From an uncultured virus (IMG/VR IMGVR_UViG_3300025413_000017) (lineage: Duplodnaviria; Heunggongvirae; Uroviricota; Caudoviricetes): 20,000 bases of DNA. The notes below the pieces were generated by a model. The model worked only from the letters and a program-made list of their open reading frames with translations. It was not told where the DNA came from and did not search any database. The translations under genes were made by a program, and so were the position numbers. The stretch covers positions 54,654-74,653 of IMG/VR virus record IMGVR_UViG_3300025413_000017; one strand, written 5' to 3'. Positions 13,667 to 20,000 of this stretch are shown one piece after another (the stretch's first letter is position 1; every line of letters begins with the position of its first letter).

Positions 13667-15718
13667 TCATCTAGGAGGTTTAGCAGTACCATTTTCATTT
13701 AGATTACTAACCTCTGTTTCTGTTGCTGGATCTTCATCAAGCATTCCTTCTGCAGCCTTATGTTCCGGTAGCCCCATTGAACCAATTTGTTTAGTATTGC
13801 CAGGAGCTCCTTGATTTACAAGGTTTGAAGGTTTACTTGGAGTTTTAATACCAAGTTCTCTATTAACTCTTTTTGCACCAGGTTGGCTTCCCATACCCCA
13901 GTTGTAACTTCCTAAACTAATAAAATCTGCATCTACAACATTTGGTCCACCAAATTCAAACTTGAATCTATCAGCAAATGAGAATGGGTTGTCACAATCT
14001 TCATGAGCATATAATGGCCTTCCATCAGGTGCAACACTTGTTTGCACTATTGGACCTCTGCCATTAACATTACTAGCATCTTCACAGAATCTGCAAGAAG
14101 GTGTAGGTTCATATGATTCATTAACATGAGTATATGCAAGTTTATTACTTGTTTTTGGTTCTTCTTTATTAATAAGTTTTTTCAAAATACTCTCCTCTTG
14201 AGATTCTGGCTTTTCAGGAGTAAAGCCACGAACAAACCCTTCAGGTGCAGACTTAAGACCACCTTCACCAATTGTTGATGGATTTTCTAATTGGTCTACA
14301 ATAGATGCATAAGCAGGTAGTGTTCTATTCTTTGTGTGTTGTCTAAGTCCTAGTGGGTTTTTAAAATATGTTTGTCTTGAAAGTAATGCAGGTCTACTAC
14401 CTACAAGACTACCAAGTCCAGAAAAAATAGATTTTGCTTTTCCTTTACCTTGAACTTCAGAACTTGCATAAAATCCTGTGCTTGCTGAATCTGGTACGTG
14501 AATACATCTTGAAGCTGGTACAGTAATGCCACCTTGAAGACCTCTAAGTCCTGAAGTTGTCCACTCAGGGTTAGGTGCATTTAATGAATTAAAGTTAATT
14601 TGACTTCTGTGTCTTTTTTGAATTGTTTCTTGACTTGTTGAAACCCAAGGGATAACTTTGTATAGTGGTTCACCCTCATGAAAGCCACTAGTAACTGTAT
14701 TTTCTGGGATTGTGCAACCTGCTGCATGTTCACCACCACGACAATTATCATCGTGGAACTTAACAGGGCATCCTTCTTTGTGAGTTGTACCTTCACCACA
14801 TATTTCATGGTGTTTTGCAATTAATTCAGGAGAAAGACTCTTAACACCAATTTCTGCATTTCTAGGTGCTGTACCAACTACCAAACCTACGTTGTGGGCA
14901 CCCCTAGGAAGGCCTGGGATTGAACCATCATGATTAACAATTGTAACAACGTGACCAATTGGGTTTCTACCATGTTCATGACACTGTTCTCTTGGGTCAT
15001 GGTCAAATTGTGAAAACAATGGGTGGTGCTCTTCAGGCATTTCAGTAGGAGCAATTCTAATTGGCTTAGGATTCTTTTGTTCCTGATACCATTCATGCAT
15101 TTGGTCTCTAGAAATGCCTCTGTCTTCTGCCTCACTAGTAATCCAGTTTTCTTCTTCTTCTTTACTAATCCCTACAGGCAATCTTGTGGTGTCACCATTT
15201 GCACTTTGTTTAGTAGCACAAATACCATTCTTACCACATACACAACTTTCTGGGTGGTGAGAAGTTTTAATTTCATTTGTTTGATAAAAAAGACTTGTTG
15301 CTTCTTGATTATTAATTCGTTCTTCTTGTTTACGAAGTTTAAGTTCTTCTGGTTTACCTTTGAACTCACCCTTGTCTCTAATCATCCTAGAACGGTCAGT
15401 ATCAAACAACCAAGTTGGGACCGGTAACCTTTGAGTTAAACCATAAATTCTATTACGTTCTTCAGTTACTGAAGGGCCTTTTCCTGAACTTGAAGAACCG
15501 CCGGTTAAACTGTCTAACTCTTCAGGAAGCATTGGTCTTTTGGTCACATCACCTTGAGAAATAATTCTCTGTACCGGATCTTTTGACCTTCTTCCAGTTC
15601 CCCTACTTTTTGTTTCTTTAGCCTTTTGAATTAATGATGTTAAAAGTTCACTACTTGGGCCTTTTATTGCTTTATCAACAAGAGCAGGGTTAATGTTGGG
15701 TTTTCTTTGTCTAGGCAC
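13667..15718 (-). CDS. Large Cys/His-rich hypothetical protein (683 aa)
   Basis: GTG start overlaps the upstream TAG (TAGTG). Tandem H-x3-C motifs plus a CRFC...HEDC cluster. Confidence 0.75.
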   Translation of the reverse strand: MPRQRKPNINPALVDKAIKGPSSELLTSLIQKAKETKSRGTGRRSKDPVQRIISQGDVTKRPMLPEELDSLTGGSSSSGKGPSVTEERNRIYGLTQRLPVPTWLFDTDRSRMIRDKGEFKGKPEELKLRKQEERINNQEATSLFYQTNEIKTSHHPESCVCGKNGICATKQSANGDTTRLPVGISKEEEENWITSEAEDRGISRDQMHEWYQEQKNPKPIRIAPTEMPEEHHPLFSQFDHDPREQCHEHGRNPIGHVVTIVNHDGSIPGLPRGAHNVGLVVGTAPRNAEIGVKSLSPELIAKHHEICGEGTTHKEGCPVKFHDDNCRGGEHAAGCTIPENTVTSGFHEGEPLYKVIPWVSTSQETIQKRHRSQINFNSLNAPNPEWTTSGLRGLQGGITVPASRCIHVPDSASTGFYASSEVQGKGKAKSIFSGLGSLVGSRPALLSRQTYFKNPLGLRQHTKNRTLPAYASIVDQLENPSTIGEGGLKSAPEGFVRGFTPEKPESQEESILKKLINKEEPKTSNKLAYTHVNESYEPTPSCRFCEDASNVNGRGPIVQTSVAPDGRPLYAHEDCDNPFSFADRFKFEFGGPNVVDADFISLGSYNWGMGSQPGAKRVNRELGIKTPSKPSNLVNQGAPGNTKQIGSMGLPEHKAAEGMLDEDPATETEVSNLNENGTAKPPR

Positions 15719-16172: not shown

Positions 16173-18599
16173 CTATTCTTTACCCAATAGCCTATTAACA
16201 ATGTCTGCACCAACTTGATTTTTTGTAGGTGCCTTAGGTGAAGGTGATGACTTGGCTCTTTCAATTTTTTCAGCACCGACTCTTGATTGTCTGTCTGCTT
16301 CAAAGCCTGCTAGCTTTTGGCGAAGTGCTTCACCAGTTGCCTTTATCTTGCCTACACCCTTAAGGAAACTAAAGGTAGGTGCATCACTTTCATTACCCCA
16401 TGCAACAGGGCGTAGTCTTGCGGTTACACCATTTCCTGCAGAAGTTCCATCAGCTAATCCACCTGTCATACCTTTTTGTGCATCAGTAGCATTGTACATA
16501 GGTGCCATTGTAGCAACAGGAAGTACACGACCACTACCGGCTTTTCCTTCTTGGCCTGGAACTACTTTAGCGTAGTTAGGGTTTGTCTTTTCTGAACCTG
16601 TTAAGTCACGAGGTCCGTTTTCTAGGATTTCCTTAACGTTTTCACCCTTACCACGGTTTCTTGCTACTTCATTTTCAAAGTGACCAAAGTCTGGAGTTGA
16701 AGGCCAAATTGTAAAGTTACTAACCTTACCAACACCGTGACTAGCTCCCATTTCAGTATTCATACCTGAACCAGATTGTGCAGATTCACGTCCTCTTTCA
16801 AAAGTTTCGATAGGCTTTCCACGACCTTCTTCTTCTCTCTTAAAAGCAGGAATACCTAGTTCTGGCACACCTTTTTCTGCAATTTGATTCATTACAGTTT
16901 CAATCTTGTCGTGATCTTCTTGAGGTAGAATGTGAACTCTGTGACTTGCAGCAAAAGTAGAACCTTCTTTTCTTCCACTAAGTTTTGGATAAAGACTTCC
17001 ATCAACACTCATTGCTGCTGTTTCTTGAATACCAATGTGACGGCCACCAAAAGCATCATCTGGTGAGTGAGTGCAACCTGGACTACCGTGGTGGGTGTGA
17101 CCAGTGCAAATCAATGGTGATGTTTCTGCATCTCCACCAAGTTGTGAACCACCAATACGACCCAAAGTAGCATCAATTACATTACCAGAAGAGTCATGCT
17201 TTGTAATCATTGCCCAACGGCCTGCTTTTGCTTCATCTTGCATTTCTGGGCGGTCTGCTCTTCTATCTGCATATTTAGCTGCAAGTGCTTTAGCAGTATC
17301 AGCCCCAAGTCCACTTGAAACTCTTGTAGTAGAAGTAGCACCTGGTACTGCATCATTGTGCATAGCAAAACCAAGTCTAACTTTTAGTCCTGCAATCTTT
17401 TCTTGAATTGAACCCTTTCTCTTCAAGTGCTTAGAACAAATGTCAAGGTGACCACGAACATCATCTGCTCTTTCACCCTCGTGAAGTGTTGCACCACACT
17501 CATCACACTTGGTGTCTTTTTTACCAGCGTGTGCTTCTACAGTTTTAGAAGACTTTCTTGGGATGAACTCACCACCAAGGGGACTGTGTCCAAATATAGT
17601 TTTGCAATCTTCACACCTAATAGGTGCTGGTCCTCCACGACTAGAGTGCATTTCTGCTCTACCACTACCACAATTTGGGCAGTTAAGAATACCTAACTCA
17701 GACTTGCAACCTGGGCAAATGTGGTTATTTTCATAATCAGGGTTATTTGCAGTGTCTGGGAAAGTTACATAGTTACTTGAGTCAGTCGGTTTTAAACATT
17801 CTTCACCTTCACCAAGATCCCCAAACCAGCCACACTTACCACTAAAGTTAGCAGTCTTAAGACTAGATTCTTTTAAATTATCAGTTTTAGAGGCAGTACG
17901 CCCATGTTCAGCACATCGGTCACTGTGGCTTTCTTGTACATCATTATTGCAACCAGGAGAAGAACATACAGAATATCTCTTGGTAGCATTAATAGCTGTA
18001 CGAAGAGCATCTTCATGGGCTTCATCACTATTAAAATGGTGGTGGCTTAACTCTACTTCATTAACCACTGCATCATTAAGTGGATAAAAGTTTTCATTTG
18101 GTCCCGTCTTAGCGTGACCACGAACTGCAGTTCTCCCATCTCCTGCAGTATATGTTAGCGTACCAATATGGGTTACTTTACCAATAGGTTCATGCAATCT
18201 ATAGGTACGAGATGAATAACTTTCTACACCAGGGCGGTCCTCAGAAAAACGATGCTCTGGAAGTTCTGTTGCTAATTCTTCAATACTAGATACTTTTAAA
18301 TTACCAGCTACATTGCACTGAGAGCAATTGGCGTGGCGAATCTTCCACTCTTCGTGAAGTGCTCTTACTAGTTTAAACTTGCTATCACTTACAGTTGCCA
18401 TCTTACGGCGAGCTGCACTCTCAATATCTGCTTCCATCATTTGGCAACGAAGTGCAAATTCTTTATCAGAGTGGGCAAGAAAAAGAAAATCTCCCGCCTT
18501 TGTTAGAACCTCATGCTTAGCGGTTACTAGATTCTTTCCGGCTGTCTTAGCATTGTAGACAGTATTAATTGAATCATCAAAATCAAAGACGGATGTCAT
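16173..18599 (-). CDS. Large multi-Zn-finger hypothetical protein (~808 aa), possible internal head protein
   Basis: Likely ATG 18599 (MTSVFDFDD) after ACAGGAG. Contains CSQC, CSSPGC...CAEH, CPGC, CPNC, CEDC, CDEC...CSKH and CTGH...CTH. Confidence 0.75.
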   Translation of the reverse strand: MTSVFDFDDSINTVYNAKTAGKNLVTAKHEVLTKAGDFLFLAHSDKEFALRCQMMEADIESAARRKMATVSDSKFKLVRALHEEWKIRHANCSQCNVAGNLKVSSIEELATELPEHRFSEDRPGVESYSSRTYRLHEPIGKVTHIGTLTYTAGDGRTAVRGHAKTGPNENFYPLNDAVVNEVELSHHHFNSDEAHEDALRTAINATKRYSVCSSPGCNNDVQESHSDRCAEHGRTASKTDNLKESSLKTANFSGKCGWFGDLGEGEECLKPTDSSNYVTFPDTANNPDYENNHICPGCKSELGILNCPNCGSGRAEMHSSRGGPAPIRCEDCKTIFGHSPLGGEFIPRKSSKTVEAHAGKKDTKCDECGATLHEGERADDVRGHLDICSKHLKRKGSIQEKIAGLKVRLGFAMHNDAVPGATSTTRVSSGLGADTAKALAAKYADRRADRPEMQDEAKAGRWAMITKHDSSGNVIDATLGRIGGSQLGGDAETSPLICTGHTHHGSPGCTHSPDDAFGGRHIGIQETAAMSVDGSLYPKLSGRKEGSTFAASHRVHILPQEDHDKIETVMNQIAEKGVPELGIPAFKREEEGRGKPIETFERGRESAQSGSGMNTEMGASHGVGKVSNFTIWPSTPDFGHFENEVARNRGKGENVKEILENGPRDLTGSEKTNPNYAKVVPGQEGKAGSGRVLPVATMAPMYNATDAQKGMTGGLADGTSAGNGVTARLRPVAWGNESDAPTFSFLKGVGKIKATGEALRQKLAGFEADRQSRVGAEKIERAKSSPSPKAPTKNQVGADIVNRLLGKE

Positions 18600-18715
18600 A
18601 TTGGGTCTGGCTCCTGTACTGTCCTCGGTATGAGGACGCTGAACTATACACATACTAAGTTTAAGAAACAGATTGTTTTAAATGTTTCTTTTCCAGATTT
18701 TTTAAGAATTAATAG

Positions 18716-18786
18716 TTCCGAAGCCTGGACTCGAACCAAGACTAAGAGATTCAAAGTCTCCTGTGCTGCCATTACACCACCTCGGA
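18716..18786 (-). tRNA. tRNA-Gln (anticodon TTG)
   Basis: TCCGAGG TG GTGT AATGGCA GCAC A GGAGA CT-TTG-AA TCTCT TAGT CTTGG TTCGAGT CCAGG CTTCGGA A. All four stems pair; U1-A72; CCA not encoded. Confidence 0.95.
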
Positions 18787-18787
18787 G

Positions 18788-18829
18788 TGGCTCCCCAGCC
18801 TGGACTCGAACCAGGAACCCGCTGATTAA
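18788..18829 (-). pseudogene. 3' half of an interrupted tRNA (probably Asn)
   Basis: TTAA TCAGC GGGTT CCTGG TTCGAGT CCAGG CTGGGGA G CCA. This gives the 3' anticodon strand, a perfect T-arm, the 3' acceptor strand, G73 and encoded CCA. It is complementary to the 5' half at 19452-19483. Confidence 0.9.
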
Positions 18830-18853
18830 ACGAATTACCATATGAGGAAATTG

Positions 18854-18925
18854 CTCCGCCCCCGGGACTCGAACCCAGATCTGACAAGTTAACAGCTTGT
18901 TGCATTGCCATTATGCTAGAGCGGA
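18854..18925 (-). tRNA. tRNA-Asn (anticodon GTT), intact, nested inside the interrupted tRNA
   Basis: TCCGCTC TA GCAT AATGGCA ATGC A ACAAG CT-GTT-AA CTTGT CAGAT CTGGG TTCGAGT CCCGG GGGCGGA G. All stems pair; U1-A72 and G73; followed by CAA rather than CCA. Confidence 0.95.
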
Positions 18926-19396
18926 AGGATTATTCTGTAAATACTTTTCTACAAATTCTTTTTTATTTTCGTACCACCCTAACTGTCTATTACAACTAGT
19001 ACAAAGTAAACCTCTAATTTTTCCTGTTTTATGGTCGTGGTCAATACTTAAATTTTTATGTACTGTAGAACCTATTTCTGATTTACAGATAGAACACTTT
19101 TTATCTTGAATTTTTAATAGTTTATAATAAATTTCTGGAGATTCATAGTTTATATTATTTTGTCTTAGTCTATCAACTATCCTTTTGCACTCATTACAAG
19201 AAAGTGAGTAATTTCTAGTTTCAGAGTTACACCATTTACAATTATAAATCTTAGGAGTACTTGGATTCCTTTTTACTCCTAGAGTAGAATGGCTTTGACA
19301 ACAGTATCTTTTGGACCCCTGCCTAATTTGGTAAGGGTACCTTAAAAAAGTATTATTGCAGCCCTCTAGTTCACAAACCCATAATGTAGATCTCAT
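18911..19396 (-). CDS. Endonuclease VII-family (His-Me finger) nuclease with N-terminal Zn fingers; putative free-standing homing endonuclease (~161 aa)
   Basis: The C-terminal QDKKCSIC...LSIDHDHKTGKIRGLLCTSCNRQLG is the EndoVII motif. The N-terminus has C-x4-C...CC-x2-H and CKWC...CNEC. ATG 19396 follows TAAGGT. The stop codon lies in the D-arm of the nested tRNA-Asn. Confidence 0.88.
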   Translation of the reverse strand: MRSTLWVCELEGCNNTFLRYPYQIRQGSKRYCCQSHSTLGVKRNPSTPKIYNCKWCNSETRNYSLSCNECKRIVDRLRQNNINYESPEIYYKLLKIQDKKCSICKSEIGSTVHKNLSIDHDHKTGKIRGLLCTSCNRQLGWYENKKEFVEKYLQNNPSALA

Positions 19397-19451
19397 ACTC
19401 AAACCTTAAATAGTAGATACCACTATAGTAGCTTTGACTTTGAGTTACATT

Positions 19452-19483
19452 GTCAGCTGCTCTGCCAATTGAGCTACCAGGGA
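19452..19483 (-). pseudogene. 5' half (nt 1-32) of an interrupted tRNA (probably Asn)
   Basis: TCCCTGG TA GCTC AATTGGCA GAGC A GCTGA C. This gives the acceptor 5' strand, a perfect D-arm, the 5' anticodon strand and C32, after which the sequence stops being tRNA-like. Confidence 0.9.
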
Positions 19484-19489
19484 ATAAAA

Positions 19490-20000
19490 CTATTTTCTGA
19501 TTACAAACAATAAGTCATCATATCGACCAAGATTTTCTCTTAGGTCAATACACTCTGTCTTATCTTTATACTCATCAGGAGTTGCATCTAGCAATATTGG
19601 GAACCAACTAGTGTCTTGAACGTCTTCTAGTACCATTACTCCACCTTCTTTTAGTTTAGGCAAGTAATATTCAATGCACTTTTTTAGAGTTTCAATAGTG
19701 TGAGGACCATCATCAATAATAATGTCATACTCACCCATTTGTTTTACAGCATCTGGGTTGTAGGCATCACAGATACCAATTCTTACTCTATCTAGGTCAC
19801 GATACTTGTGATTAATGTTATCAACAATGTCTAGGCCTGTAATCTGACCCTTAGTAAAATACTTACTCCATAGTGCAAGAGATGCCCCACCATAGATACC
19901 AATTTCTAGTAACTTAATTTCTTTGTCTTGGTATTTTTTAAACTCTTCATTATAGAATCCTTTAACAAAGTCATGTTCACCTTCGTAACCACCTTTATCG
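19490..20000 (-). CDS. Class I SAM-dependent methyltransferase, 5' end outside window
   Basis: The frame is open from the right edge: DKGG...H...Y...KLLEIGIYGGASLALWSKYF...ITGLDI...YDIIIDDGPH...LKEGGVMVLED. These are motif I and the DDGxH motif of sugar/small-molecule O-methyltransferases. The ORF track shows only the last 82 aa. Confidence 0.85.
   Translation of the reverse strand, partial: DKGGYEGEHDFVKGFYNEEFKKYQDKEIKLLEIGIYGGASLALWSKYFTKGQITGLDIVDNINHKYRDLDRVRIGICDAYNPDAVKQMGEYDIIIDDGPHTIETLKKCIEYYLPKLKEGGVMVLEDVQDTSWFPILLDATPDEYKDKTECIDLRENLGRYDDLLFVIRK

Follow-up and report, generated by a model that had tools for sequence, protein, structure and literature searches.

The nuclease gene of this phage locus has no 3' spacer and ends inside the tRNA gene that follows it. 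The two genes, which are a predicted homing-endonuclease gene and a variant tRNA-Asn gene, overlap by 15 nt and form a mobile cassette within a broken resident tRNA-Asn gene. Related phages show that the overlap recurs beyond chance but is not obligatory, and that both states persist in nature. The overlap is real, and we consider it probable that it is an incidental consequence of the spacer-less packing of a selfish nuclease and tRNA cassette. The window, which is the whole stretch of DNA analyzed, constitutes the final 20 kb of an IMG/VR virus record of 74.6 kb, whose completeness is estimated at 46%. All genes around the overlap lie on the minus strand.

The nuclease ORF spans 18911..19402(-) in the ORF list and encodes 163 amino acids from a TTG codon at 19402, or 161 amino acids from an in-frame ATG at 19396. 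The ATG, which has the sequence AAGG in front of it, is the likely start codon and would give a 161-residue protein encoded by 18911..19396(-). The protein matches the Pfam domain Endonuclease_7 (PF02945; E 3.3e-20, 72.2 bits versus a cutoff of 23.6) with residues 83-156, and we predict it to be a homing endonuclease of the Endonuclease VII / His-Me finger family. Its C-terminal residues are ...NNPSALA, of which the last four, S-A-L-A, are encoded by the tRNA and lie outside the Endonuclease_7 domain. Comparisons with the homologues in loci L104 and L119, which share 70–78% amino acid identity with it, gave dN/dS values of 0.11–0.13 at dS > 1. This constraint across diverged lineages indicates that the ORF is a functional gene. 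Judged by its sequence, the protein belongs to a family that is used by homing endonucleases, and its own homing role is putative. With the nuclease protein as query, we found 79 loci with distant EndoVII relatives in IMG/VR (L004-L082; 33–55% identity). A tRNA abuts the nuclease stop in none of these 79 loci, and any tRNA is present within the fetched flanks in five of them; the overlap is therefore no general property of the EndoVII family.

The downstream partner is the cassette-borne "replacement" tRNA-Asn(GUU). ARAGORN called it as tRNA-Asn(gtt) at 18853..18925(-), and Rfam family RF00005 matches 18854..18925(-) with 59.4 bits (gathering score 29, E 4.8e-12). The overlap occupies 18911..18925(-). 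Nucleotides 1-15 of the tRNA run from 18925 down to 18911, with nt 1-12 encoding S-A-L-A and nt 13-15 forming the TAA stop codon (18911-18913), which at the same time provides the first bases of the D-loop motif TAATGG. ARAGORN, Rfam, and the ORF list thus bear out the preliminary description, according to which the last codons of the nuclease are exactly the first 15 nt of the tRNA. The predicted RNase P cut falls between 18926 and 18925. Judged from the sequence, a stop codon occurs within the first 15 nt of this tRNA in two of its three frames. The 15-nt junction is identical in the window, L104, L119, and L127.

On both sides, the cassette is flanked by remnants of a resident tRNA-Asn gene. 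The 5' remnant (19452..19483(-)) comprises nt 1-32, ends at C32, and matches the intact tRNA-Asn of L084-L087 exactly over 32 nt. The 3' remnant (18788..18830(-)) contains the end of the anticodon loop, the 3' strand of the anticodon stem, the variable region, the T arm, the 3' acceptor strand, and CCA, and has an exact 35-nt match in the intact tRNA-Asn of L086/L089. It is directly followed by the next array gene, tRNA-Gln(UUG), at 18715..18786(-) (ARAGORN; Rfam, 60.4 bits versus a gathering score of 29). Exact-pattern scans of IMG/VR revealed that the two tRNA halves are contiguous in other phage contigs (L084-L087), where ARAGORN calls an intact tRNA-Asn(gtt) at the insertion point, and similar loci thus differ in the presence or absence of the cassette. 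The window therefore contains a cassette inserted in the anticodon loop of a resident tRNA-Asn. ARAGORN also calls a tRNA when the halves of the window are joined in silico. Such junctions were abandoned as a means of naming the original anticodon, because they gave many different ARAGORN anticodon calls; an initial tRNA-Lys guess was wrong, as the intact relatives are tRNA-Asn.

From these boundaries, the cassette can be delineated as the nuclease gene, the variant tRNA-Asn, and a right-end spacer of about 22 nt (18831..18852(-)). The spacer is conserved among cassettes with different nucleases, and its core motif, CTCATATGGTA or a close variant, is common to the window, L104, L119, L091, and L090. 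In its anticodon loop, the cassette tRNA is identical to the resident tRNA-Asn, but its acceptor, D, and anticodon stems differ, a pattern that would be expected of a nuclease-resistant replacement allele. The resident halves are decaying, as seen from the loss in the window of 4 nt of the anticodon loop that are kept in L104 and L119, and from mutations in the old anticodon stem of L119. In L104 and L119, TTAA is found at both junctions, with the 5' flank spanning the whole loop and ending in TTAA and the 3' flank restarting with TTAA; in the window, 4 nt of the copy on the 5' TTAA side are lost. The TTAA at both junctions may be the mark of a staggered nuclease cut at TTAA. Going by titles and abstracts, we found no description of this nested replacement-tRNA architecture in the literature, and such a nuclease and replacement-tRNA cassette in a broken resident tRNA is less familiar than the rest of the locus.

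An intron was considered as the cause of the interrupted tRNA and rejected. No intron family in Rfam matched positions 18500-19700 at E <= 10, which is weak evidence by absence, and the intron mode of ARAGORN (0-1000 nt) calls no split tRNA. The non-coding flanks of the ORF and tRNA measure only about 55 nt and 22 nt and leave no room for a ribozyme core. A group I intron specifically is disfavored by the 5' half, which ends in C and not in U, by the 4-nt deletion or stem mutations of the remnants, and by the lack of a group I match in Rfam.

Further genes of the window surround the array. Two ORFs of 826 and 683 amino acids (16173-18653(-) and 13667-15718(-)) are rich in Cys and His and had no Pfam match at E <= 0.01; the start of the 826-residue ORF lies immediately downstream of the tRNA array, and L085-L090 share the conserved N-terminus of this ORF. 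A methyltransferase-like ORF (19490-19999(-); Pfam Methyltransf_24, E 6e-8) directly precedes the broken tRNA on its upstream side and is cut off by the end of the contig. Its homologue in L091 and L135 is located downstream of the cassette tRNA instead, which indicates that the array has been rearranged between relatives.

A search with the cassette tRNA as query yielded four IMG/VR loci and 45 metagenome loci. L003 (132.9 kb, IMG/VR), L092, and L127 (metagenome) are identical to the window here and provide no independent evidence. Identical copies were collapsed and earlier loci added, which resulted in 12 distinct nuclease–tRNA junctions; this sample is neither blind nor independent, having been collected with one tRNA pattern and by picking the longest ORF that ends near the tRNA. 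The stop codon lies inside the tRNA in nine of the 12 junction types, at a depth of 10–46 nt, and 3–4 nt before it in the remaining three. The overlapping types include EndoVII and HNH nucleases as well as one unclassified ORF, combined with tRNA-Asn, tRNA-Gln, or tRNA-Ile. An overlap of 15 nt is found for the EndoVII proteins of 161/163 amino acids in the window, L104, and L119, for an HNH-like protein of 146 amino acids in L090 and an HNH protein of 167 amino acids in L098/L120 (all with tRNA-Asn), and for an HNH protein of 225 amino acids with tRNA-Gln in L094/L134. Two further ORFs end 10 nt inside a tRNA-Asn, namely a 119-residue HNH protein in L114 and an unclassified Cys/His-rich ORF of 155 amino acids in L138, and a short EndoVII-like ORF in L085/L086 ends 46 nt inside a tRNA-Ile(tat). 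The types that stop short of the tRNA are two relatives of the L090 nuclease with tRNA-Asn (L099/L105 and L116, 4 nt before it) and an EndoVII ORF with tRNA-Asp in the Lak-C1 megaphage, read with TAG as Q (3 nt before it).

ORFs of at least 80 amino acids without nuclease motifs, a class assigned without Pfam, end 11–52 nt before the same kind of tRNA in L100, L102, L108, L115/L133, and L134. Similarly, the only other sizeable ORF that precedes a tRNA in the genome of the window (tRNA-Arg) ends 35 nt short of it. A 101-residue ORF that runs through the whole tRNA in L126 was taken as spurious. All three EndoVII lineages have the same 15-nt junction at dS > 1, and the junction has thus survived a long divergence. 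This identity could reflect selection on the junction itself; as a counterpoint, the tRNA itself dictates these 15 nt.

Several of these loci have features of their own. In L094 (2190-3016), the 225-residue HNH ORF ends 15 nt into the tRNA-Gln, and a stretch resembling a 5' half of tRNA-Gln was recognized by eye just upstream, which suggests that the same overwrite design was used at a second tRNA. In L085/L086 (1616-1960, with L085 reverse-complemented), an EndoVII-like ORF of 80–85 amino acids (Pfam E 1.9e-10) and the tRNA-Ile(tat) replace the 5' part of a resident tRNA-Ile, which is intact in L087 and L090; the stop of this ORF is the one located 46 nt inside the new tRNA-Ile. Finally, the Prevotella phage Lak-C1 (L002, 456534-459666) contains a 133-nt stretch with 76% identity to the nuclease gene of the window at its 3' end. 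This stretch belongs to the EndoVII ORF of Lak-C1, which has 214 amino acids and five in-frame TAG codons (read as Q) and ends 3 nt before the tRNA-Asp, and a second HNH-like ORF starts 3 nt past a tRNA-Asn.

The junction is variable even between close relatives. The L090 nuclease shares about 80% amino acid identity with those of L099 and L116, and its stop lies at position 15 of the tRNA, whereas L099/L105 and L116 have TAA plus 4 nt before the tRNA; the difference consists of a 4-nt indel at the end of the ORF. Two of the three lineages of this HNH type thus stop 4 nt upstream of the tRNA. Whether homologues keep the overlap, a question raised in the preliminary description, has a divided answer: the three EndoVII lineages and nine of the 12 junction types do, but L099/L105 and L116 (4 nt short), Lak-C1 (3 nt), and T4 segB (5 nt) do not. 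The two genes are also separable. In L091 (1990-2140), the nuclease is deleted exactly to position +1 of the tRNA, and the cassette tRNA, the spacer, and the resident 3' half are kept. In L094/L134 (L094 1940-2110), an L099-type HNH ORF has been reduced to its final 22 nt, which remain beside the cassette tRNA-Asn and the resident remnants. The L094 deletion joins the resident D-loop to the ORF end at a shared 7-nt sequence, TGGTAGA.

Upstream of the nuclease, a predicted hairpin in the 5' UTR (19397..19439(-); MFE -21.7 kcal/mol) extends up to the start codon and pairs the Shine–Dalgarno sequence AAGG (19404-19407). Its z-score is -4.56, and none of 200 shuffled sequences was as stable. L104 and L119 are predicted to form the same stem of 15 pairs, and the three sequences contain no compensatory pairs. 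A promoter and terminator scan of the locus gave no terminator-like sites, and its 10 promoter-like sites are not above the number in shuffled sequences (5.2 +/- 2.5 expected). Weak sigma-70-like matches (9 of 12) are located within the nuclease ORF on the minus strand, at 19176-19147 and 19044-17. Because the overlapping ORF and tRNA lie on the same strand, every full-length nuclease mRNA necessarily includes the tRNA, and RNase P cleavage at tRNA position +1 would consequently remove the nuclease stop. RNase P cuts at this position in tRNA precursors, and ribosomes at a stop-less 3' end are rescued by tmRNA or by ArfA/ArfB. The earlier proposal that tRNA maturation truncates the nuclease message accordingly holds for the loss of the stop, which follows from the same-strand layout, but it sits poorly with relatives whose ORFs stop 3–5 nt before the tRNA.

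In the reading that we favor, the cassette unites a free-standing homing-endonuclease gene with a presumably nuclease-resistant copy of tRNA-Asn and has inserted into the resident tRNA-Asn, breaking it at the anticodon loop. The nuclease ORF needs a 5' UTR with a ribosome-binding site; it has no 3' UTR, and it continues directly into the tRNA with its stop supplied by bases that the tRNA conserves for its own reasons (the D-loop TAATGG). On the presumed co-transcript, each RNase P cut that matures the tRNA-Asn in vivo would detach the nuclease ORF from its stop and leave a message ending in ...AAU AAU CCU, stop-less, unprotected, and presumably subject to tmRNA tagging. A ribosome that terminates at the TAA would cover and unfold the acceptor strand, the D arm, and part of the anticodon stem, and translation and processing should therefore be mutually exclusive. 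Normal termination would occur only on the unprocessed precursor, so that the nuclease would be made mainly from fresh, uncut precursor. Together, stop loss and the hairpin over the ribosome-binding site would dampen nuclease output, which we take to be a by-product of packing that is tolerated or of mild use, and not a conserved device.

The layout could instead be a selected self-limiter, in which the stop is kept in the tRNA, RNase P creates a non-stop mRNA, and tmRNA tags the toxic nuclease for degradation, so that enzyme arises only from those few ribosomes that reach the stop ahead of tRNA folding and cleavage. Its repeated origin with the unrelated folds EndoVII, HNH, and T5orf172/MUG113, in nine of the 12 junction types and three T5 genes, argues for such selection, and the hairpin over the ribosome-binding site would provide a second brake. 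The idea itself has been published for both SegB and the enzymes of T5 (PMC2330249), the arfA case shows that the principle works (PMC3989581), and overexpression of wild-type SegB is described as toxic (PMC13096335). Nevertheless, we regard a selected limiter as unlikely. L099/L105, L116, Lak-C1, and T4 segB all stop 3–5 nt before the tRNA. Moreover, with a stop in two of three frames within 15 nt, entering the tRNA costs an ORF only 3–4 extra residues, and since the Pfam domain already ends at residue 156 of 163, the protein can probably do without its tail. A distinctly unlikely extension of this idea regards the placement of the stop within the downstream tRNA as a timer of convergent origin, with ribosomes and RNase P competing for the same 15–30 nt. 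If true, each precursor would allow about one pioneer round of nuclease synthesis, after which the tRNA would fold and be cut and a non-stop message would be left for tmRNA. At least three unrelated folds (EndoVII, HNH, and T5orf172/GIY-YIG-like) would then use host tRNA processing and ribosome rescue to stay below toxic levels, and the variants that stop 3–5 nt upstream would reach the same end, with 3' exonucleases quickly erasing the short tail.

Two further explanations assign the overlap another role or none. The preliminary description had also suggested a genetic lock, in which the overlap exists to keep the nuclease and its rescue tRNA inseparable by recombination. The two are indeed found together in the window, L104, L119, L090, and L098, but L091 and L094/L134 contradict such a lock, since the nuclease is gone from these loci and the tRNA and flanking remnants are retained; besides, a 15-nt overlap compared with a 4-nt gap barely alters the recombination distance. 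We consider this explanation very improbable. There might also be no interplay between the two genes, if most of the tRNA were transcribed from a separate promoter within the ORF or if the nuclease came only from a rare read-through transcript. The weak sigma-70-like matches on the minus strand of the ORF would fit an internal promoter, and in L091 and L094 the tRNA apparently does not depend on the nuclease ORF for its function. This possibility is nonetheless quite improbable, as the promoter-like matches do not exceed those of the shuffles and any transcript of the whole nuclease still bears the tRNA 5' end and would be an RNase P substrate.

A stop codon inside the following tRNA is nothing unusual for nuclease genes of phage tRNA arrays, and the regulatory proposal, in print since 2008 (PMC2330249), still has the status of a hypothesis. 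The loci described here offer a natural test set, the three diverged EndoVII cassettes with the same junction, and a natural test pair, the close HNH relatives whose only difference is a stop located either 15 nt into the tRNA or 4 nt ahead of it. With this pair, the old hypothesis becomes open to a direct test. Furthermore, the locus shows selfish nuclease and tRNA cassettes overwriting resident tRNA genes and then decaying, which bears on the turnover of phage tRNA repertoires.

Known systems resemble the locus in different respects. Homing endonucleases borne by group I introns occur in tRNA anticodon loops, for example in cyanobacterial tRNA-Leu and tRNA-fMet. Like the window, they represent an anticodon-loop insertion that carries a nuclease ORF; unlike them, the window has no ribozyme, its tRNA halves are decaying, and a whole new tRNA is supplied with no splicing. 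A second likeness concerns arfA of E. coli, where an RNase III cut generates a non-stop mRNA and the product is removed by tmRNA, as reported in PMC3989581; cleavage-made non-stop mRNA can thus repress a protein via tmRNA. In the same manner, an endonucleolytic cut upstream of the stop would couple the nuclease level of the window to trans-translation. The arfA cut is made by RNase III on a hairpin, whereas that of the window is a putative RNase P cut on a tRNA; there is no homology between the two.

Closer parallels come from phages T4 and T5. The brakes proposed for T4 SegB are a hairpin at the ribosome-binding site and cleavage of the transcript at the stop codon as the tRNA matures (Brok-Volchanskaya et al, 2008; PMC2330249), and the hairpin of the window resembles the hairpins that occlude the ribosome-binding site of T4 homing endonucleases. 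In addition to the toxicity of the overexpressed wild-type protein, an association of segB with tRNA genes across phages is described in PMC13096335. Like the nuclease of the window, segB lies directly in front of a tRNA (tRNA-Arg); according to RefSeq and ARAGORN, its TAA ends 5 nt before this tRNA and there is no overlap. SegB differs further in its fold, which is GIY-YIG and not EndoVII, and its gene lies between tRNA genes and not inside one, without the isoacceptor replacement that is seen in the window.

In T5, RefSeq records combined with ARAGORN place the end of hegD 23 nt inside tRNA-Gln(ctg), that of hegC 14 nt inside tRNA-Ser(gga), and that of T5.069 (Pfam T5orf172/MUG113) 24 nt inside tRNA-Asn. 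We take hegC and hegD to be the F-Tfl enzymes of Akulenko et al (2004). For the F-Tfl enzymes, lowered expression through transcript processing has been proposed (PMC2330249). By table count, all three T5 nuclease ORFs overlap the next tRNA (14–24 nt), compared with one of nine non-nuclease ORFs that precede a tRNA or stable RNA (6 nt). Apart from this 6-nt overlap and one gap of 121 nt, the other small T5 ORFs directly before a tRNA or stable RNA leave gaps of 0–15 nt, which indicates that tight packing is general in the T5 array; the deeper overlaps of the nucleases hint at something nuclease-specific. Flanking halves of a broken resident tRNA with the same anticodon were not seen in T5 within the tRNA-Asn neighborhood, and a nested cassette involving rna3 was discarded, since rna3 gave no tRNA match. 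The T5 proteins belong to HNH_3 or T5orf172 families and the nuclease of the window to Endonuclease VII, but hegC, hegD, and T5.069 are, as in the window, free-standing nuclease genes in a tRNA array, on the same strand and with the stop inside the next tRNA. The locus of the window adds a further example to the tight packing of nuclease and tRNA genes already known from phages T5 and T4.
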